64,000 bases of DNA from a virus (IMGVR_UViG_3300023179_000049); one strand, 5' to 3'. Counted from the first letter of the stretch, positions 4,885-38,275 are shown. The notes: generated from the letters alone by a model not told the origin. Program-made: numbers and translations.

Positions 4885-5172
4885 TTATTCATCACCATCT
4901 TCAAAAAATCCTAAAGACTTCGCTCGAGCATATCCAACAAACTTACCATTTTCTGGGTTAAGATATTGTCTTTTAGATTTAGGTAATGATTCTTGATACT
5001 CAATATCTGTTTTATATTTTTTAAGATAAGTTTTATCCCAATCTATTCTTACTTCTAAAAGTTGTCCTTTGTCATTATAAACCCATGTATCAGTGCTTAT
5101 TTCGTCTGTAAGAATAATTTCTTTTTTAGAAGGTTTTTTATTTAATATTTCTTCTTTGTTGTTTTTTGCCAT
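4885..5172 (-). CDS. hypothetical protein
   Basis: 95-aa ORF followed by terminator. Confidence 0.4.
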   Translation of the reverse strand: MAKNNKEEILNKKPSKKEIILTDEISTDTWVYNDKGQLLEVRIDWDKTYLKKYKTDIEYQESLPKSKRQYLNPENGKFVGYARAKSLGFFEDGDE

Positions 5173-5187
5173 TATCTTAATTTTTCT

Positions 5188-5691
5188 TTACAAATAAAAA
5201 TCTTTGTGATATGGTAAAGTACTGTTATTCAATGTATTATTTTTAGTTTCATCCTCTAATATACGTTCTTCTGTAGAAAGAAGTCCTTTTCCGAACTGCT
5301 TTAATCTTTTCCAATAACGTTCTTTTACTCGATTAGATATACGAATTGGATTTCCTTCATCATCAATTCGTACGAACTTCATTTTTGTATGAGTTACAAT
5401 TTCTTGAATGCCTGTATATACGTTATGCTTTCTGGCTTCAATATATAATGTTATAGAAGTATTTCCGAATTCTGATACTTCTCCATAAATCTTTATAATA
5501 TTTCCTAACTTCGTGGGTTTTTTAAAGATAAACTCATCTACTTTTATAGTAATCATTCTGGGTGTATCACAAATTTGAGCAGAATATACTGCAGAAGCTT
5601 CATCTACCCACCCGACTAATGTACCTCCAAACATATTGTTATGAATACCAATATCCGATGCTTTACATATATGTGTACTTATTAGTTCCAT
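5188..5691 (-). CDS. hotdog-fold acyl-CoA thioesterase-like protein
   Basis: 'HNNMFGGTLVGWVDEASAVYSA' resembles YciA/4HBT thioesterase active-site region. Confidence 0.5.
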   Translation of the reverse strand: MELISTHICKASDIGIHNNMFGGTLVGWVDEASAVYSAQICDTPRMITIKVDEFIFKKPTKLGNIIKIYGEVSEFGNTSITLYIEARKHNVYTGIQEIVTHTKMKFVRIDDEGNPIRISNRVKERYWKRLKQFGKGLLSTEERILEDETKNNTLNNSTLPYHKDFYL

Positions 5692-5692
5692 G

Positions 5693-6412
5693 TTATTTAT
5701 TATTGTGATAATCTATTAATTTCCATTTACCGTCTTTTGTTTCTACTAATGCCGTACAATTTTCACACCAATCTCCAGAATTCATATATTCGTCTTTTAA
5801 AGATGGTTGATGAATATGTCCGCATATTGCTACTTGACATCCTTTTCCCTTTGCTAATCTAACAGCATTTATTTCAAAATCATTTATAAAATTCGTAGCT
5901 TTCTTAATACCATTTTTAATATCCTTGGATATTGAATAGTATGGTAATTTTCTCCATGCTCTCCAACGATTATACCAACGGTTTATCCAAAGCGCAATAT
6001 CATATCCAATACTACCAATATAAGCTAACCACTTTACTTTTGTAATAAAGACATCTAATATATCTCCATGAAATATATAATAACGAATTTGATTACTTTG
6101 ATGAATCCAATACTCTACAATCTTAATATTTCCTAGATCAAATGGAATAAAGTCTTTTAAGAATTCATCATGATTACCTCTAAGCCAAACAACATTAGTA
6201 CCTGTTTCAGATATTTTTAATAGTTTACGAATGATCTTAGTGTCTTTTTTGGTCCATTTACTTCCTCTTTGTAAAGACCACCCATCAATAATATCTCCGT
6301 TTAAGATTAATGTTTCTGTAGATAATTTATCTAAGAAATCTAATATATCATCTCTTCTCGATGCTTTACTTCCTAAATGCAGATCTGATATTATTACTGT
6401 ATTATATTTCAT
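5693..6412 (-). CDS. calcineurin-like metallophosphoesterase (LpxH-like)
   Basis: Motifs 'ISDLHLG', 'LNGDIIDGW', 'LRGNHDEF', 'CGHIHQP' = phosphoesterase motifs I-V in LpxH-like arrangement. Confidence 0.6.
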   Translation of the reverse strand: MKYNTVIISDLHLGSKASRRDDILDFLDKLSTETLILNGDIIDGWSLQRGSKWTKKDTKIIRKLLKISETGTNVVWLRGNHDEFLKDFIPFDLGNIKIVEYWIHQSNQIRYYIFHGDILDVFITKVKWLAYIGSIGYDIALWINRWYNRWRAWRKLPYYSISKDIKNGIKKATNFINDFEINAVRLAKGKGCQVAICGHIHQPSLKDEYMNSGDWCENCTALVETKDGKWKLIDYHNNK

Positions 6413-17238: not shown

Positions 17239-17865
17239 TTATTTTAAGTTCTTAACGAAATTATAAAATTCTTCTCTTACTTTAGCATCGTCTTTAAATG
17301 CTCCTGTTAATTTTGAAGTAATCATTGTCGAATCATGTTGGATACCTCTTAAACAAGCGCATTGATGACCTGCTTTAATCATTACTGCAACTCCTAAGTT
17401 AAACTCACAAGTCTTATCTAAGTAGTCAGAGATTTGCATAGTTAGGTTCTCTTGGACCTGCGGCATACGACAAAAATAATCTACAACGCGATTTAATTTA
17501 CTTAATCCAATTACTTTACCATTAGGCGCTGGAAGATATGCAACATACGCTTTACCTACAAAAGGAAGCGCGTGATGTGAACAAGTAGATTTTACATCTA
17601 TATTACCTTGAAACACCATTCCATCATATCTATCTGTATTAGAAAATGCTGTAATTTTAGGAGGTCCTTGATAAATACCTTTATATAAATCATTAACAAA
17701 TGATTTTGCAACGCGCATCGGTGTATCAGTCATATGTGGATCATTTTTATAATCAAAGCCTAAAGCTGTTAAAAATTCTCCATAAGCTTCTGCGGCATCA
17801 TTTAACATTTCTTGTTTTTCATTCTCATTTAAAATGAGTATTTTATCTACGATTTTTCTTTTCAT
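17239..17865 (-). CDS. folE: GTP cyclohydrolase I (FolE)
   Basis: 'DTPMRVAKSF', 'CSHHALPF', 'PQVQENLT', 'HQCACLRG' - hallmark FolE motifs. Confidence 0.9.
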   Translation of the reverse strand: MKRKIVDKILILNENEKQEMLNDAAEAYGEFLTALGFDYKNDPHMTDTPMRVAKSFVNDLYKGIYQGPPKITAFSNTDRYDGMVFQGNIDVKSTCSHHALPFVGKAYVAYLPAPNGKVIGLSKLNRVVDYFCRMPQVQENLTMQISDYLDKTCEFNLGVAVMIKAGHQCACLRGIQHDSTMITSKLTGAFKDDAKVREEFYNFVKNLK

Positions 17866-18710
17866 AATAATTGTATAGTTTCTTTAACTTGAATTAATTC
17901 TTTTGAGTCTAACCAAAATATATAAACATTATCGCATAATTCCAAAGCTTTATTTATTTTTAATGCATCAATATTATAAGATTCTAATCTTGTATATTTG
18001 TTAGTTTTTAATGGGCATGCCGGTAACGTTGGATTTTCTAATACATCACTTAATCTATAATGCCATGGACCATTAACTTCTATAATTGTTTGAATATCAT
18101 GCAATCCAGAGTTAATAACTACTAAATCATAAGCTATGGATTTTTTTTTATTTGTTATTGAATTAAATATTACTTGATAATATTCATTACCATTAATGCC
18201 ACCCCCATCATAATAACACTTATCTTCTGATATATTATATTGTCTTAGATATTCTTTAATATATAACCTGGCTATATTACTTTGACGGCCAAGGATTTTT
18301 GAAGAATATTTACCATTTTCAATATTTTTTAATATCGTCTCATTACGTCTTTGAATTAAATCAGGGCATTGTGCTGCCTTTGACATATTCAATCTTCTTT
18401 CTGCAGTATAATATTCTGGCGCGCCGCATTTTAACCTACGAACTTCAATTTGCTCAAATGACTTCATTTGACTTCGTGCCGAACTTGACCTCTGAGATTT
18501 TAACTTCTTAGCGACATCTACTCCATAAATTTCTTCGTATGTTCGTCCACGTGCCCTATCTCCGCACTTAATTTTTAGTTCATCTGTTTTTAACTCAGCA
18601 TCTGGGTATTTAGATTTATATTCTTGCTGAGTAATCCCATGCGTCTTTAAATGTGTATTACTAATATATTTAAAGGCTTTATTGCATATTAAGCATATTA
18701 TGGTGTTCAT
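17862..18710 (-). CDS. free-standing endonuclease, Vsr/DUF559-like nuclease domain with N-terminal zinc finger
   Basis: N-term 'CLICNKAF...HLKTH' C2H2-like; C-term 'IIEVNGPWHY' matches (V/I)IE(V/I)NGxxH motif also in 33805..34710. Confidence 0.5.
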   Translation of the reverse strand: MNTIICLICNKAFKYISNTHLKTHGITQQEYKSKYPDAELKTDELKIKCGDRARGRTYEEIYGVDVAKKLKSQRSSSARSQMKSFEQIEVRRLKCGAPEYYTAERRLNMSKAAQCPDLIQRRNETILKNIENGKYSSKILGRQSNIARLYIKEYLRQYNISEDKCYYDGGGINGNEYYQVIFNSITNKKKSIAYDLVVINSGLHDIQTIIEVNGPWHYRLSDVLENPTLPACPLKTNKYTRLESYNIDALKINKALELCDNVYIFWLDSKELIQVKETIQLL

Positions 18711-30701: not shown

Positions 30702-32558
30702 TTAATGTATCTCACAATTATTTCCTGCACAGGCTAGCTCACCACTTAAATCTGTATCATCTACTAATTCTACTACTTGAGTCAAATCAACATTAACTAA
30801 TGATTCCATCAATTCATTATATCTTTCTTCTGTAATATCTTCAAATGGAGCTTGAATATATGTATGGTCTGCATAAGGAAGAACTGATAATCCGTTATAA
30901 CAATTTTTATTCTCCCACATCCATTCTCCAACGCTTTCCCATTCATTATCTTTAATAGATACTGTAGCAGATATATTATGAGTATTTTGTCCTGTTCTGT
31001 GACCTGGCTTAATCCAATTAGTATAGAACCATTTAACACGACTTAATAAATCTAATGCTGATTCTGTCCTTAAAATAGAACCTTCTGGAGCTTTTTGTGG
31101 TACTGAAATAACTGCAGTATCATGAGGTCTAAAGTATTCATCTTCTAGAAGCTCTGGATGATTTATTAATAAATGCGTATATAAAGATTCATTCTTTCCA
31201 ATACGCATTCTTCTAATATAATAATCATTGTGCCAAGCATGAATTCCACTTGATGTTCCTAATACTAATGATGATGTTCCGCTAGGTTTAATTGTAGTTG
31301 TTCTAGCAGCTTTATTAATACCAATAAGATTGGCTACTCTTTCGTTTTCTTCTTTAACAATTTCAGCAGCTTCATTCATATCATATTGTTGAGCTTTACC
31401 AGAACCTACTCCTGTAATACCAACTCCAATTAAAGCTTCTTTTTCTGTCGTTCTTTGCCAAATTGGTCTTAAGTAATGAAAATCTGTATACCCTGCTTGA
31501 AGTGTTCCTATAAATGCTGCGACTTTAACTCTATTATTTAAATCTTCTTGTGATTCAATATTACTTACATTTACTTCACATAAGTTACAAAACTGAAATG
31601 GACGTAATGCAATTTCGCAACACGGATTAGTTCCCCAATCTTTATCATTGTTTAAATAAATTCCAGGTTCTCCTGCTCCAGAAGCTTTAATCTTGTCCCA
31701 TATTGACATAAAGAATTCTTTAGTAACGCGATTACGTAATAATACTGCTGAGTTATTTGCTCTTCCTCTTTGTGGATTTAGTTCCCACCAATTACCTGTT
31801 TTAGATGAAATCATATCATCATCATCTGCGCTAAATAATGAAATTAAAGCAGCTCTTCTAATACCACCTGCTAATACTGCGTCTGCAATATGGCATACAA
31901 TATCATGCGTTTCTATAGGAGTTAACTTTTCTCCGTCAGATTTAGTATCTAAAATACCTTGAATCTTAACAATACATTCTTTTAATGGTTGAGGACCTGG
32001 AGCTTTACCACCAGAAGTTACAAGTAATGCTCCTTTTGGTCTAATATCAGAAAAATCAAATAAAATACTTGAACCGCCTTCAAAATAAGACTTCATTAAT
32101 ACTTTAATTGCATCTGCCCATCCTTCAATAGAATCGCCAATTAAAAATCGTCTGTGCTTTACAGGATTTGGTTTTCTTATTTCCGGTAATTTTTCTACGT
32201 GATGTTTTTGAACTGAATATCCGACTCCTGTGCCGCCTAATAATAAGAACATTGTTTCGCCAAACGCTCTGTAATCATCTATTGGAAGATAAGCGCAGTT
32301 ATAAACTCTGTTTGGAGAAAGCTCAATTGATTTACCTCCGAATTGTAAACTTCTCATTGAAGGAAGTACTTTTTTGTCATAAACCAATTGATATGCATTT
32401 TCTATTTCAGCTTCCATATGCGGATACTTTCTAATATGCATTTCTTTGTTTCTTGTTACAATTTGCCACCAATCTTCTCGGCGACTTAACTCACTTTTAT
32501 ATTTTGCATACTTACTGTATACAGTAATATCGGAGAGTATCTTGTTTGAAATTTTCAT
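30702..32558 (-). CDS. ribonucleotide reductase, class II-like (NrdJ-like) catalytic subunit
   Basis: Active-site 'NPCCEIAL' (NPCGEI-type), 'FQFCNLCEVN', C-terminal Cys pair 'ACAGNNCEIH'; 618 aa single chain. Confidence 0.65.
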   Translation of the reverse strand: MKISNKILSDITVYSKYAKYKSELSRREDWWQIVTRNKEMHIRKYPHMEAEIENAYQLVYDKKVLPSMRSLQFGGKSIELSPNRVYNCAYLPIDDYRAFGETMFLLLGGTGVGYSVQKHHVEKLPEIRKPNPVKHRRFLIGDSIEGWADAIKVLMKSYFEGGSSILFDFSDIRPKGALLVTSGGKAPGPQPLKECIVKIQGILDTKSDGEKLTPIETHDIVCHIADAVLAGGIRRAALISLFSADDDDMISSKTGNWWELNPQRGRANNSAVLLRNRVTKEFFMSIWDKIKASGAGEPGIYLNNDKDWGTNPCCEIALRPFQFCNLCEVNVSNIESQEDLNNRVKVAAFIGTLQAGYTDFHYLRPIWQRTTEKEALIGVGITGVGSGKAQQYDMNEAAEIVKEENERVANLIGINKAARTTTIKPSGTSSLVLGTSSGIHAWHNDYYIRRMRIGKNESLYTHLLINHPELLEDEYFRPHDTAVISVPQKAPEGSILRTESALDLLSRVKWFYTNWIKPGHRTGQNTHNISATVSIKDNEWESVGEWMWENKNCYNGLSVLPYADHTYIQAPFEDITEERYNELMESLVNVDLTQVVELVDDTDLSGELACAGNNCEIH

Positions 32559-32651: not shown

Positions 32652-33818
32652 TTATCCCAAAGAATTTCCTAAAAGTTCTGAATATTTTGTAGCTAATGAT
32701 TTTCGTGTTACTGAGTCTTCATCCATTTCTGTTTTTGTTTCTCTTCCTTTAATAGATGATTCTTGATACATATCAATTCTACCATTTGACATATTAAGTT
32801 TAGTTGGTAATGTTAATCCATCTGGCCCAAAACGATTCTTAATAAAATGAACTCTTCCCGTACCTGCAATCTTATCTGTTGTTTTTCTTGCTAATGAAAT
32901 AATAACATCTCCGATCATAATCTTACTAAATGAAGAAGCTACTTGATCTGATGTAATAATATCAGATTCTACGGAAGATCTATTTGCTTGAGATGCTGTA
33001 ACAACTGGTATTTGATATTCACCGGCTAATCCTCTTAAATCTTCATATGTAGTTTCTAATTCTTCATGAAGTTTTTCTTTTGCTTTTGCTGAACGTAATA
33101 AATCTGCATAATCTACAATAACAATATCAGGTTTTACTCCTTGCATTAACATTTTATCTAAATGAGCTTTTAATGTTGTTACAGATGCTGTTTTTGTCGG
33201 AAAAAACTTTAAATACAATTGTCCTTTTAGTTTTGATAATTCATGCTCAACTTCTTCTAAGTTATATTTTAAATTTGCAGTCGCTATTCCAGTAACTACC
33301 GAATCATATCTTTGAGCTACATAAGGCTCTGATAATTCCATTGTATAATGGACTACCGTTTTTCCTTGTCTTAATAAATGAGCTCCTACATTAATCATTG
33401 AAGTAGAGTTATGTGATAAAATACCATTACTATAATAACAATTAACCTCATCTACTGTAATATCATATAAAGATTCATATTTATCTAAATATTTCAACTC
33501 TTTTAGATATGTCATACCTGATTCAGTTTCTATAATATCAGAAGGCTTAATATTTAATACTTTAGTCCACCCATCTTGTGTCTTTAATAAATGATGTGAT
33601 GAACATTGTAAAGTTTTATTATTTCCGAAATAACATGTTACTTTTTGTTGAATTTCTGTTCTAAATAAAGATGTTATACTTTTATATCCATATGGGGTAA
33701 GTACTTTAACATGTATATCAGGTATAACTTCTATATTAGGAGTATTTGGTATTTGATATTTATCAAATAATTCTTTAATAGTTATAGTTTCTTGTTTATT
33801 TCGTTTAATTAATTTCAT
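32652..33818 (-). CDS. gp41/DnaB-like helicase, C-terminal part, preceded by intein C-terminal segment
   Basis: '...NGILSHN|STSMIN' intein end (HN + Ser+1); extein has DnaB-family RecA-domain motifs ('IVDYADLL', 'ASQANR', 'HFIKNRFG'); upstream residues 20-101 resemble Hint blocks A/B without Cys1. Confidence 0.7.
   Translation of the reverse strand: MKLIKRNKQETITIKELFDKYQIPNTPNIEVIPDIHVKVLTPYGYKSITSLFRTEIQQKVTCYFGNNKTLQCSSHHLLKTQDGWTKVLNIKPSDIIETESGMTYLKELKYLDKYESLYDITVDEVNCYYSNGILSHNSTSMINVGAHLLRQGKTVVHYTMELSEPYVAQRYDSVVTGIATANLKYNLEEVEHELSKLKGQLYLKFFPTKTASVTTLKAHLDKMLMQGVKPDIVIVDYADLLRSAKAKEKLHEELETTYEDLRGLAGEYQIPVVTASQANRSSVESDIITSDQVASSFSKIMIGDVIISLARKTTDKIAGTGRVHFIKNRFGPDGLTLPTKLNMSNGRIDMYQESSIKGRETKTEMDEDSVTRKSLATKYSELLGNSLG
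33408..33515 (-). other. candidate split-intein C-terminal half (IntC, 36 aa from internal Met)
   Basis: MTYLKELKYLDKYESLYDITVDEVNCYYSNGILSHN: block F/G pattern ending HN, followed by Ser. Confidence 0.5.
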
Positions 33819-34710
33819 ATATAAATTTTATGACTTGATCTAATATAATATCTTTTTTGGATTTCCAATCCGATTCCCATATAATAAAAATAGAATAATT
33901 AAGGGCTTCTAAGTCTTTACATCGAGAGGCATCTTTATTCCATTGGTCATCAACAAGATACATTCCTCCTGGTTTTTTAATATAATCTCCGGACTTATAT
34001 ATTTTTGGATTACAATGCCAATAATCTCCATTTATTTCAATAATTTTATTATCAACCTGAATATCTACAATATATAAAGTATTAGATATCTTTTTATTAA
34101 ATTTAAATACTTTATCTTTGCAAAGAGATTTAATATTTTCCTGAATTAATCTTTCTAATTTAGATACACATCCGGTATTATTATGTTGATCACCAAAATT
34201 TTTATCTAACCATGCTTCTTTACCTACTAATGCAATTTCATTTAATTTATTTCTTCTTGTAGCATTACTTTGCTTTATTTTAGCTTCTTTAGTATGTGAA
34301 TGACCTAAGAACTTTTTTGACTTAGCACTGGCTATTGATTGATATTCTTTTAATTTATTACTAGCTTCTTCATGAGACAATCCACTATTTAAATAATATT
34401 CAATGGATCTTTTAGAGCCCTTTTTACTTTTTAATTTCGAAGCTTCTTGTATTTTTAAAATTTCTGCAGGGTCTGATATATTACGTTTAGAATAATATTC
34501 GTCACAAAATTTATTTCTTTCTCTTTGATTAATTGACACTTGCAATTTAGATTCTTCTTCAGTATATCCTAGAGCTAGCCAATATTCTATTCTATTTTTA
34601 GTAATAGGGGGTGTTCCATTAGAATTAAATTTTTTCTTTTGTTCTTCCCATTTACGAAGACCTTCTACTTCGCCGTATTTTTTAATCCAAGCTTGTTTTA
34701 CAGATGCCAT
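33805..34710 (-). CDS. free-standing homing endonuclease, Vsr/DUF559-like nuclease domain
   Basis: C-terminal 'IIEINGDYWHCN' nuclease motif; N-terminal repeated 'EYWLALGYTEEES'/'EYYLNSGLSHEEAS' helix modules; lies between the two helicase halves. Confidence 0.6.
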   Translation of the reverse strand: MASVKQAWIKKYGEVEGLRKWEEQKKKFNSNGTPPITKNRIEYWLALGYTEEESKLQVSINQRERNKFCDEYYSKRNISDPAEILKIQEASKLKSKKGSKRSIEYYLNSGLSHEEASNKLKEYQSIASAKSKKFLGHSHTKEAKIKQSNATRRNKLNEIALVGKEAWLDKNFGDQHNNTGCVSKLERLIQENIKSLCKDKVFKFNKKISNTLYIVDIQVDNKIIEINGDYWHCNPKIYKSGDYIKKPGGMYLVDDQWNKDASRCKDLEALNYSIFIIWESDWKSKKDIILDQVIKFIYEIN

Positions 34711-34752
34711 ATTCTTTATTATAAATATATAAATAATAAAATTTTTATATAT

Positions 34753-35541
34753 TTATTTTTCCTGGACCTGGACCTGTAAGAGGTTAATTACTTCATATCC
34801 TTGAATTTTATGATTATCTATTTCATATATGGTAAATGGATCAATCCAAAATATAAAAGGTATTCCTTGAGAATTAATCATCTCAATACCCAACTCTTCA
34901 TACTGTATATCTATAGATGTATTAGGCCCTATACATTTACCAGCACCTGGTCCCGCTACAAATATAATAAGTTCTCCTTTACCAATACCGCCATCAACTA
35001 ATTCATTAAATGCTGTCCAAGGCGTAGGTAAAGTTAGTCTAGCAGATTCTTCATAACGAAGCTTAACATCTTTTAAATATTCTAATCCAATATCTTGATT
35101 AGCCCCTGCTTTCATCGCAGTATCAATTTTCTTTTTGATATTATCATATTCTCCTGATTGTAATAATTCAACAGACTCGATAATGGCTTTTTTGATGCAT
35201 TGGTTTTTACAGAAGTTAACGCATTCTGTTTTAACGAAATCTAAATCTTCTGCTTCAACATATCTTAATATATCTTTTAAAGATTCTACAATAGACATTT
35301 TTAAAGGTTCAGATGTAAGTTCTAATGCCTTTACTTTAAATACTTCTAATGTAGGTACTGTTTTATATTCTGGATAGTATTTCATAATAATGTCTACAAT
35401 CCAAATATTAGCTTCAGAATCAAAATATTCAGGTATTAAAATATCGAATATTTGTTGAAGAAATGTTTTATCTTTTATAAGGGCCGCAATTATTTTTAAT
35501 TGAAAGGTCTTTCCGTACTGCGTAAATCTATCTTGACTCAT
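34753..35541 (-). CDS. gp41/DnaB-like helicase, N-terminal part, ending in intein N-terminal segment
   Basis: Walker A 'FVAGPGAGK' immediately followed by 'CIGPNTSIDI' (Hint block A, Cys1 at 34933-34935); ORF terminates 60 aa into the intein. Confidence 0.7.
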   Translation of the reverse strand: MSQDRFTQYGKTFQLKIIAALIKDKTFLQQIFDILIPEYFDSEANIWIVDIIMKYYPEYKTVPTLEVFKVKALELTSEPLKMSIVESLKDILRYVEAEDLDFVKTECVNFCKNQCIKKAIIESVELLQSGEYDNIKKKIDTAMKAGANQDIGLEYLKDVKLRYEESARLTLPTPWTAFNELVDGGIGKGELIIFVAGPGAGKCIGPNTSIDIQYEELGIEMINSQGIPFIFWIDPFTIYEIDNHKIQGYEVINLLQVQVQEK

Positions 35542-35572: not shown

Positions 35573-36628
35573 TCAAGAATTATTATTTGTTCCTAGCGCA
35601 AATATATTTAATTGATTAAAGATGTTTAAAAATGTAATAGGATCGTTAATATAGTTATATCCTTTATCCGTAGCTAATATTTGTATAAATTCGTTTTTAT
35701 TAATTAATGATACTGCTTCGTTAAACTTATCAATTAAGAATAGTTTATGCGTACCTGATATATCTACATTATGTAGTTGCATTAATTTATAATTACGTGT
35801 TATAATGTCTTTATTGTTAATGATTTTTTTGTATAATTTATCATCTTGTTTATCTTCACAAAAAGATAAAAATTCTTCTAAACCAACTACCCTATTTTCT
35901 TGCAAAATAGGCATCTTTCCTACGGTCTTAGGGCCGATTCCAGGCACTCCGGGTATATTATCTCCATCGTCTCCAATAAACACTTTATAGAGGTGATAAT
36001 TCTCTGCAGGCACTCCAAATCTTACTTTAACATCTTCTAATTTATATAAACGCTTTTCTACTGGTCTATATACATTAACTTTCTCATTTACAAGTTGTAG
36101 ATAATCTTTGTCGTCTGAAACTATCATTACATTATTACTTCTTGTATTAAGAATATCTGTAGTTAAATACGCTACCATATCATCTGCTTCAATATGGTCT
36201 GCAGTAATTACTGATACTGGTAAGCAACGTAAGTATTGTATTAATCTTACAAATTGATGCTTCATCGAAGCACTTTCATCTTCTGCGTTTTCAAATATCT
36301 CTGCTCTGTTAAAAGATTTAGGAGCTAAACGATTGCCTTTATATTCAGGATATAGCTCTTTTCTTTTTTTAGAGCCTCCTTTACCATCAAACGTAATAAT
36401 AATTCTTGTAGGTTTGAATGTTTTAACATAAGAAGCTAGTGACTTTAAGAATCCTAAAGACCCTCCTAAATGCTCTCCATTTTCATTCATTACTGGGTTG
36501 GCTTGGAAACATCTCAAGTAAAAATTAGTCCCGTCCACTAACATAACCCTGGAGTTAATATTTAGTGAAACGGGACTTTCTTTTTCTTGTTGAATCTCTG
36601 CTAATAACTCAACAAATCTATTTAACAT
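35573..36628 (-). CDS. RNase H / 5'-3' flap endonuclease (T4 rnh-like)
   Basis: 'LVDGTNFYLRCF', 'ITFDGKGGSKKRKELYPEYKGNR', 'IEADDMVAYL', 'IVSDDKDYLQL' match 5' nuclease metal-binding motifs. Confidence 0.8.
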   Translation of the reverse strand: MLNRFVELLAEIQQEKESPVSLNINSRVMLVDGTNFYLRCFQANPVMNENGEHLGGSLGFLKSLASYVKTFKPTRIIITFDGKGGSKKRKELYPEYKGNRLAPKSFNRAEIFENAEDESASMKHQFVRLIQYLRCLPVSVITADHIEADDMVAYLTTDILNTRSNNVMIVSDDKDYLQLVNEKVNVYRPVEKRLYKLEDVKVRFGVPAENYHLYKVFIGDDGDNIPGVPGIGPKTVGKMPILQENRVVGLEEFLSFCEDKQDDKLYKKIINNKDIITRNYKLMQLHNVDISGTHKLFLIDKFNEAVSLINKNEFIQILATDKGYNYINDPITFLNIFNQLNIFALGTNNNS

Positions 36629-36634
36629 AACTTA

Positions 36635-38275
<1,641 letters not shown>

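Follow-up and report, generated by a model that had tools for sequence, protein, structure and literature searches.

A phage replicative helicase gene broken inside its P-loop by a probable natural split intein, with a Vsr-like endonuclease gene between the intein halves

We analysed a stretch of 64,000 nucleotides (nt) from the virus IMGVR_UViG_3300023179_000049, here called the window, in which the gene for a DnaB-like replicative helicase is interrupted by an intein and by a gene for a putative homing endonuclease. The window has a G+C content of 29.9%, and all large open reading frames (ORFs) are located on one strand. ORF calling and translation placed three consecutive ORFs on the minus strand, at the positions at which an earlier, first-pass annotation had described a helicase gene split by an intein. 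The first (N-ORF) encodes the N-terminal portion of the helicase and the intein's N-terminal part (IntN), the second encodes the endonuclease, and the third (C-ORF) encodes the intein's C-terminal part (IntC) and the rest of the helicase. The features are listed below with the evidence for each in parentheses; aa stands for amino acids, and dN/dS for the ratio of nonsynonymous to synonymous substitution rates.

34753..35541, minus strand: N-ORF, 262 aa, N-terminal part of the helicase and 60 intein residues, ending in TAA.
34936..35541, minus strand: N-extein, helicase residues 1-202 (ORF, PHROG_19, flank identity to an empty allele).
34894..34935, minus strand: IntN part 1, intein residues 1-14, with Cys1 and Hint block A, the long strand β1 (CIGPNTSIDIQYEE) (conservation, alignment, model).
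34756..34893, minus strand: IntN part 2, intein residues 15-60, an accessory subdomain (conservation, contiguous relatives, dN/dS, model).
34753..34755, minus strand: stop codon TAA of IntN (sequence).
34711..34752, minus strand: A+T-rich spacer of 42 nt from the IntN stop to the endonuclease start (sequence).
33805..34710, minus strand: free-standing endonuclease ORF, 301 aa (Pfam matches below cut-off; family profile against Vsr).
32652..33818, minus strand: C-ORF, 388 aa, in a shifted frame, intein residues 1-137 followed by Ser138.
33408..33818, minus strand: IntC, 137 aa (Pfam Intein_splicing and PT-HINT, conservation, model).
32652..33407, minus strand: C-extein of 251 aa and stop, with Ser+1 and the remainder of the RecA-like helicase domain (PHROG_19, Pfam DnaB_C).
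33408..34935, minus strand: the whole inserted element of 1528 nt, comprising IntN, spacer, endonuclease gene and IntC (missing in empty-site alleles).

The N-extein contains the N-terminal domain, the linker and the first part of the RecA-like domain, and it ends with the lysine of Walker A (...FVAGPGAGK). Cys203 of the N-ORF (codon 34935..34933) is the intein Cys1 and opens the sequence CIGPNTSIDI... (from residue 203: CIGPNTSIDIQYEELGIEMINSQGIPFIFWIDPFTIYEIDNHKIQGYEVINLLQVQVQEK). The endonuclease ORF, which carries the motifs IIEINGDYWH and IIWESDW, follows in the same frame after one stop, and its end overlaps the start of the C-ORF by 14 nt. IntC begins with a strand (residues 2-11) and helix α1 (TIKELFD), which are followed by block B (S73-x-x-H76, here S73-S-H-H76, codons 33602..33591), block F with the aspartate D119, and block G with H136-N137 at 33413..33408. 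It ends in ...CYYSNGILSHN, after which the C-extein starts with Ser+1 (S138 TSMINVGAH...).

Both helicase parts match the DnaB-like profile PHROG_19, the N-ORF at positions 159-366 and the C-ORF, from residue 138, at positions 367-600. Since positions 366 and 367 adjoin, the exteins abut to the residue inside the Walker A motif, GK/ST (the slash marks a junction here and below). The P-loop corresponds to a site already described for DnaB inteins, insertion point b (Novikova et al. 2016, PMC4760082). A blastn search against loci in IMG/VR identified empty alleles in which the two flanks are joined precisely, namely L003 and L005 (97-98% identical), L004 (94-97%) and L006-L020 (82-89%). The flank of 865 nt on the N-side is 98.5% identical to that of the intein-less allele L003. 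The junction in the empty alleles reads ...GGT AAA/TCT ACT..., which corresponds to AGPGAGK/STSMINVGAH. Removal of the element thus restores, precisely and in frame, a helicase with an intact GPGAGKST P-loop (predicted ligated junction ...FVAGPGAGKSTSMINVG..., empty site in L003 ...CCAGGTGCTGGTAAATCTACTTCGATGATTAATG...). The N-extein of 202 aa and the C-extein of 251 aa add up to 453 aa, which is the length of uninterrupted helicases, and the predicted spliced protein is identical to the L003 helicase at 451 of the 453 residues. Polymorphisms in the flanks of the window recur in the empty allele L003, and polymorphisms in the flanks of L002, which is occupied, recur in the empty allele L004, so that the presence or absence of the intein segregates within at least two haplotypes of one phage population.

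The residues required for splicing are retained in both halves. Cys1 directly follows AGPGAGK of the N-extein and is invariant in 33 family members, in which T6, I8, I10 and Y12 of IntN are nearly invariant; block A of IntN aligns to CVTGETIVTI of a contiguous relative in the terminase large subunit (TerL). In block B, S73 and H76 are invariant in one family alignment (A2), and the histidine is invariant in a second (A3). Blocks F and G read LYDITVDEVNCYYSNGILSHN/S, with D119, H136 and N137 invariant. The +1 residue is a serine, apart from a threonine in one member of the helicase family and a cysteine in the TerL out-group row. The Pfam Hint models match residues 44-137 of the C-ORF, and only the first 30 or so model positions are missing; for the single sequence, the matches to PT-HINT and Intein_splicing are below the cut-offs.

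The fused IntN and IntC sequences were also modelled with AlphaFold from an unpaired alignment, in which 8 IntN-bearing fragments and 24 IntC fragments were placed in separate rows. The model had a mean predicted local distance difference test score (pLDDT) of 82.6, with block means that were mostly 90-96 in the intein and fell to 78 where IntN and IntC meet; from the single sequence of the fused intein, no usable model was obtained (pLDDT 31). In the model, IntN residues 6-19 form a long strand (pLDDT of about 95), residues 25-30, 35-38 and 41-44 form three short strands, and residues 45-58 form a helix. In IntC, residues 2-11 form a long strand, which is followed by the helix TIKELFD and the usual Hint strands. 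The pLDDT was 78-95 in the accessory subdomain and 90-96 in IntC. A Foldseek search against the PDB gave 61 matches at E <= 1e-3, and the best 50 of the 61 were all inteins or intein-like Hint domains, with VidaL (6vgv) as the best match, followed by the DnaB, NrdJ-1 and gp41-1 inteins. When the PDB was searched with a sequence profile, gp41-1, the TerL consensus intein CatC and VidaL were matched, in each case over IntC only, and no solved intein was matched by the accessory subdomain. By its residues the intein is of class 1, with a Hint fold in the predicted model.

The two intein parts also differ in charge, with a mean net charge of -4.7 for IntN and +3.2 for the first 15 residues of IntC, and opposite charges on the two halves have been reported for other natural split inteins (PMC2677866). 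Halves of split inteins bind tightly, and the covalent ligation of the exteins is itself an inference, so it could be argued that the helicase works as a two-piece enzyme held together non-covalently by the intein halves. We find this improbable, because the break is placed at GK/ST and the P-loop would not be formed until about 200 intein residues (60 and 137) had been removed. Moreover, Cys1, the SxxH motif, the block F aspartate, the His-Asn pair and Ser+1 are invariant or nearly so, and these residues are needed for the chemistry, not for binding.

To what extent the element is maintained can be seen from closely related alleles and from codon comparisons. The occupied allele L002/L059 is 96% identical to the window, with 119 substitutions and 0 indels over 3186 nt, and has kept both stops and the frame shift. 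In a second occupied allele, L001 (99% identical), the part of the element that is covered begins within the endonuclease ORF. The protein cluster of the C-half has 7 members, from JGI, ENA and Logan, and near-identical copies of the C-half were found on contigs of 115-198 kb. In the comparison between the window and L002, the ratio of synonymous to nonsynonymous codons was 23:3 in the N-extein, 5:2 in IntN, 26:12 in the endonuclease, 11:2 in IntC and 21:2 in the C-extein. The only two replacements in IntC change the loop ESGM to ELGT, with loss of the internal methionine. The codon counts correspond to a dN/dS of about 0.1 or lower in the exteins. For the intein halves, dN/dS was estimated with the Nei-Gojobori method in 11 pairs of moderately diverged relatives, of which 8 for IntN and 10 for IntC had an estimable dS. 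The values in the unsaturated pairs were 0.02-0.37 for IntN and 0.04-0.23 for IntC, including pairs in which one partner lacks the endonuclease. Judged from these codon comparisons, both intein halves are under purifying selection.

To place the locus in a wider context, relatives were collected with several searches. An exhaustive phmmer search with the 60-residue IntN tail retrieved N-terminal helicase fragments whose tails are 45-47% identical and end 60-72 residues beyond Cys1. In metagenomes and IMG/VR, profile-guided scans identified 62 loci (42 distinct) with inteins that are 37-59% identical and are inserted at GK/C...HN/S throughout. A protein search with a combined IntN+IntC profile gave at least 158 clusters at E <= 1e-5; the 120 listed were almost all C-fragments of 364-402 aa. 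A word-indexed protein search with the IntN profile retrieved 6 short fragments only. P0005, a repeat protein of 1461 aa that was matched by the IntN tail, was set aside as it looks like a compositional match. A DNA search with the 2.9-kb region against 50,697 phage records gave no match, and a tblastn search with the C-ORF in cultured phages matched the extein only (best match Microcystis phage Mel-JY01, 44.6%), with no member of the intein family. No relative was found in a scan of 185,579 representative bacterial and archaeal genomes (GTDB) with the IntC profile.

The break point is identical in 57 split loci, and the loci form a series of states. In the majority, the intein is split and an endonuclease gene of 241-339 aa is located between the halves; the three-ORF layout of the window is shared by L052, L054-L056, L060 and others. 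The endonuclease start is placed 15-180 nt past the IntN stop in the relatives, in varying frames, and wherever a relative has an endonuclease gene, the end of this gene overlaps the start of IntC by 4-41 nt. Of the endonuclease in L051, only the last 35 or so residues remain. Other split loci have no endonuclease gene: in L049, L050 and L110 the two helicase ORFs overlap by 4 nt, and gaps of 10-241 nt separate the halves in L053, L057, L062, L065, L070, L079, L093, L098, L102 and L108. Finally, L067, L104, L105/L106 and L107 have contiguous inteins of 172-204 aa in one ORF. IntC is 134-147 aa long across the family, and its ORF starts at the same alignment position.

One pair links the contiguous and the split forms directly. 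L104, with a contiguous intein, and P0123/L115, with a split IntC, share about 99% identity across the intein and some 35 residues at the start of the C-extein, while the helicases are only about 60% identical beyond these flanking residues. This pattern looks like homing with co-conversion of the flanking extein sequence. In L115, the C-terminus of a Vsr-like endonuclease is located immediately upstream of IntC. The comparison points to a recent transfer and a recent interconversion of contiguous and split forms, in which an intein that is otherwise identical gained or lost the endonuclease gene very recently.

Several helicase genes in the family are interrupted twice. A second, canonically split intein of the gp41-1/gp41-8 type (IntC ...FYANDIYTHN/S) is present further downstream in the helicases of L057/L094 (at about 5050-5850), L067 and L107, at an insertion motif (SQxxR/C...) that we take to be DnaB H4. 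The L057 helicase is thereby encoded in three pieces with two different split inteins, and L067 and L107 combine a contiguous intein in the P-loop with a split one downstream.

An explanation that we consider marginally less probable than the two-piece enzyme is that the intein is dead. According to this explanation, which the first-pass annotation had raised as a recent disruption, the endonuclease gene landed in a contiguous intein, splicing was lost, the helicase gene became a pseudogene and the phage uses the host DnaB or another helicase. The non-canonical place of the split would fit with this, and the closely related contiguous forms imply that the insertions are recent in some lineages; moreover, the splicing of the halves is itself deduced. 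However, a pseudogene is difficult to reconcile with the dN/dS values in the intein halves and exteins, with a break point that is identical in loci diverged down to 37% identity, and with split forms that have outlasted the loss of the endonuclease with their catalytic residues intact. All catalytic residues are also retained in the window. The other possibility named in the first-pass annotation, an atypically placed natural split intein, is therefore favoured by the signs of selection and the constant break point.

The position of the split was determined by aligning the fused halves with the contiguous relatives L104, L105, L067 and L107 and with the contiguous terminase mini-intein L112. 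Each Hint element occurs once in this alignment, in the following order: Cys1 and strand β1 (CIGPNTSIDIQY); a family-specific insertion of 50-75 columns; a strand and helix α1 (ETITIKELFDKY); the following strands (VKVLTPYGYKSI...); block B (S73-x-x-H76); and blocks F and G. The break point is located at the C-terminal, variable end of the family-specific insertion, whether or not an endonuclease gene is present. IntN accordingly consists of block A/β1 and an accessory subdomain of about 45 aa, with no block B in the tail of the N-ORF. As the first-pass annotation had recognised, this is not the textbook position of a split: block B is located in the C-ORF, the two halves have lengths of 60 aa (IntN) and 137 aa (IntC), and the loop at the canonical split site (ETESGMT) is continuous. 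As in VidaL, 10-12 residues of IntC precede the TIKELFD helix, and this is the position termed S1. The length of IntN is not that of the short S1 type (about 15-16 aa); owing to the accessory subdomain attached to β1, it comes to 60 aa in the window and 55-74 aa in most relatives.

The accessory subdomain is composed of the continuation of β1, three short strands and one helix. It is kept at 33-55% identity in the helicase N-fragments of the relatives, with G16 and W30 invariant and P33 nearly invariant; it is present in frame in the contiguous relatives and absent from the related TerL mini-intein. Most plausibly, it adds a binding surface to an IntN of which the catalytic part is a single strand. 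Two loci have shorter IntN tails, of 33 aa in L083 (…GILKWYDPWDLSS, followed by the stop) and 45 aa in L070, in which the helix and part of the small sheet are missing. IntC is intact in both, and L083 also has an intact endonuclease gene of 304 aa. These natural short tails suggest that the accessory helix, at least, is dispensable.

The alignment also bears on the suggestion in the first-pass annotation that the intein's N-terminal part is duplicated and that a 36-aa IntC starts at an internal methionine (33513-33515), which we regard as very improbable. The sequence VKVLTPYGYKSI is superficially similar to the block A strand, and Met102 would indeed give an IntC of 36 residues, which is a canonical size. 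However, the stretch from VKVLTPYGYKSI to CSSHHLL is the single copy of the strands after α1 and block B, as each Hint element is present once in the alignment with the contiguous relatives and the TerL mini-intein. Furthermore, the Pfam PT-HINT match begins at profile position 31, the N-ORF tail has no block B, and the solved gp41-1 intein aligns with residues 32-128 here and not with the N-terminus. The methionine is a threonine in L002 and variable in the family, and a start at this site would leave out block B.

That the stops and the frame shift are assembly or sequencing errors in what is in reality one contiguous intein-endonuclease ORF, as would seem natural from the single TAA between the N-ORF and an endonuclease ORF in the same frame, can be dismissed, since both are kept in the independently assembled L002/L059 (4% diverged with 0 indels; the 99% identical L001 covers the element from within the endonuclease ORF onward), the endonuclease starts in varying frames in the relatives with a stop that always overlaps the IntC start, and Vsr-like/EDxHD endonucleases have been described as free-standing or intron-encoded genes (PMC2677866; PMC3239194). 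The shared frame reported in the first-pass annotation is thus real in the window, but the relation is not conserved among the relatives, so that the same frame with a single TAA is probably coincidental. Read-through of the stop codon, which would fuse IntN to the endonuclease, was rejected on the same ground. The split locus is neither an artefact nor a fresh wreck.

The endonuclease contains three helix repeats (YW..G.s.eEa), a NUMOD3-like segment (KSKKFLGHSHTKEAKIK) and a C-terminal Vsr-like/EDxHD nuclease core. The window protein alone matches Pfam MTES_1575 and DUF559, both below the cut-off. A profile of 11 family endonucleases matched the E. coli Vsr protein (1vsr, 1cw0, 1odg) with E = 7e-4 to 9e-4 across the catalytic core, with the match at E = 7e-4 spanning D51...H69...D97 of Vsr, and I-Bth0305I (3r3p) with E = 0.027. 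The residues E225, D229, H232, N234, P235, D260 and W278-E279-x-D281-W282 are invariant in the 11 sequences, and the catalytic E, D, H and D are present in the Vsr-like core. By these profile comparisons the middle ORF is Vsr-like at the family level, and at this level the first-pass annotation was right. A ROS/MucR-type N-terminal zinc finger is found in 5 of the 11 family endonucleases, and the window enzyme has none. The candidate target of the endonuclease is the empty site of L003, ...CCAGGTGCTGGTAAA/TCTACTTCGATGATT...; both its activity and its target are predicted from the sequence. We know of no Vsr-like/EDxHD endonuclease that is fused inside an intein.

A second endonuclease-like ORF, of 282 aa, is located elsewhere in the window (17862..18710, minus strand). 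A ROS/MucR-like zinc finger (MNTIICLICNKAFKYISNTHLKTHGITQQEYKSKYP) is located at its N-terminus and ...TIIEVNGPWHY...YIFW at its C-terminus, and the ORF matches the profile of the family endonucleases weakly (E = 9e-5). As judged by eye, it sits between ORFs for a glycosyltransferase-like protein of 394 aa and a GTP cyclohydrolase I-like protein of 208 aa, with a 4-nt overlap with the latter. It looks like a free-standing homing endonuclease without association to an intein.

Taken together, we consider it highly probable that an uncultured A+T-rich phage carries here a fractured gene for its replicative helicase, in which a class-1 intein in the P-loop is naturally split in the S1 topology and the gene for a Vsr-like/EDxHD homing endonuclease is located between the halves. 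In this model, the two helicase fragments would be translated separately, and translation of the fragment with IntC and the C-terminal helicase part would probably be coupled to that of the endonuclease ORF through the 14-nt overlap. The acidic IntN would then dock on the basic N-terminus of IntC and complete the Hint horseshoe. An N-S acyl shift at Cys1, attack by Ser+1, cyclisation of Asn137 and an O-N shift would join the helicase halves in trans, and the product would be the helicase of 453 aa with an intact GPGAGKST P-loop. The endonuclease would presumably cut intein-less helicase alleles in co-infecting relatives and spread the element by homing.

Five points weigh against this reading. 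Trans-splicing and the spliced product are deduced from sequence. The fused model was built from an unpaired alignment, so that the docking of IntN and IntC is a prediction that rests on the priors of AlphaFold and not on co-evolution. The similarity to Vsr is weak for the single sequence and becomes significant only with the family profile. The inteins with short IntN tails in L083 and L070 are of uncertain activity, and part of the accessory subdomain may therefore be dispensable. Lastly, a scan of the spacer and the locus for promoters and terminators gave no enrichment above shuffled sequences, and no ribosome-binding signal was assigned.

The helicase locus appears to be flanked by three recognisable genes. 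A 5'-3' exonuclease-like gene (35573..36628) is located beside it, and a gene for a class II-like ribonucleotide reductase of 618 aa is located at 30702..32558 (minus strand); both were identified by eye and from Pfam families in the syntenic relative L049, in which the gene order is gp32, UvsX, exonuclease, helicase and ribonucleotide reductase. The neighbourhood also contains a full-length gene for a GroEL-like chaperonin of 538 aa (36635..38251, minus strand), read by eye.

The family consists of previously uncharacterised natural split inteins at the helicase P-loop, which comprise at least 158 protein clusters and are found on more than 60 phage contigs, and combines an S1 split with an accessory subdomain on IntN that is seen in no solved intein. 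Its states suggest a route in which an endonuclease gene invades an intein, the gene breaks, the endonuclease decays and a stable split intein is left. The contiguous and split pair with about 99% identity and the empty alleles with 98% identity in the flanks make this route directly testable. We also propose, as a possibility that we would not yet call probable, that the family represents a third natural way of splitting an intein, in which the insertion loop inside the Hint domain after β1 is a second landing pad for free-standing endonuclease genes, and in which a very short catalytic IntN is viable because the dedicated subdomain, about 45 aa long, serves as a clamp that gives it affinity for IntC. 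If so, the family would amount to a new class of atypically split inteins, orthogonal and possibly fast, and its coexisting contiguous, endonuclease-bearing, endonuclease-less and empty alleles would be a natural system for testing the gene-breaking model of the origin of split inteins. Since atypically split inteins are sought for protein semisynthesis and labelling, new natural ones are of practical value.

The arrangement at the locus is that of the fractured genes, which were described and named by Dassa et al. 2009 (PMC2677866) and for which the comparison set included gp41-1 to gp41-9, NrdJ-1, IMPDH-1 and others. As in these loci, a phage gene for DNA metabolism is broken by a split intein with all three ORFs on one strand, and a short spacer (42 nt here and 27-51 nt in the published loci) is followed by a free-standing gene for a Vsr-like endonuclease. 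Other shared features are the overlap of the downstream ORF with the endonuclease gene, the opposite charges of the halves, and the existence of variants without an endonuclease, such as gp41-7. The published gp41 inteins differ in that they are split at the canonical position, with an IntN of 88-105 aa and an IntC of 33-54 aa, and are inserted at other positions in the helicase, whereas the intein in the window is inserted in the P-loop and split near its N-terminus, with 60 aa in IntN and 137 aa in IntC. Among the loci of Dassa et al., an unusual break was found only at the terminase locus (PMC2677866).

With regard to atypical splits, a 2026 paper from the Mootz laboratory (PMC13014065) gives two natural positions so far, with an IntN of 15-35 aa. 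These are S1, after β2, as in VidaL (IntN of 16 aa) and PolB16 OarG (15 aa), and S2, after α1, as in AceL-TerL (25 aa) and GOS-TerL (37 aa). As described there, VidaL and PolB16 share with the window intein a break between the first strand or strands after Cys1 and the strand that precedes helix α1, as well as an IntC that makes up nearly all of a Hint domain. In structure, the model is matched best by VidaL (6vgv), with a structure-based identity of about 14%, and in sequence, IntC matches VidaL significantly. The family of the window intein differs from VidaL and PolB16, as they are presented in that source, in its conserved accessory subdomain of about 45 aa on β1.

The AceL-TerL, GOS-TerL and Cat-TerL inteins share with the window intein the phage origin and the short IntN, as far as the same source goes. 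IntC is also similar in sequence to the TerL inteins: it matches CatC (6dsl_B) with E = 3.6e-11 and is 32% identical to the TerL IntC of P0003, of which the end FYSNGILSHN/STS matches that of the window IntC. The contiguous TerL intein L112 is 27% identical to the window intein. From what the source describes, the TerL inteins differ in being split after helix α1 (IntN of 25-37 aa) and in their host protein; they also have no accessory subdomain. Among our loci, L046 (4840-5552) and L047 have a gene for the terminase large subunit with an atypical S2 split intein and no endonuclease. The IntN is 37 aa long (CLLSNTYITIKNKKTGRIEEITIGDFFNRISEKREVK), with a stop that overlaps the start of IntC, and the TerL frame before Cys1 appears to be shifted by one base (RQSRK, where RQ.GK is expected), which is either an error or a defect.

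To our knowledge, the known DnaB P-loop inteins are all contiguous, either mini-inteins or endonuclease-containing. The cellular inteins at DnaB insertion point b (PMC4760082) share with the window intein a site inside Walker A of a DnaB-type helicase. The endonuclease, in turn, shares with I-Bth0305I and the EDxHD family (PMC3239194) the Vsr-like core (E, D, H and D in IIE.nGD.WH ... D) and DNA-binding modules of the NUMOD3 type. I-Bth0305I, on which the EDxHD family was founded, is the product of a group I intron in recA (PMC3239194), whereas the window enzyme is free-standing in a phage gene. Both fractured genes and atypical split inteins are known, and the basic finding will therefore be no surprise to specialists. 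As far as the available literature shows, what is new is the combination of an S1 split and an accessory subdomain on IntN at the helicase P-loop, together with the completeness of the evolutionary series.

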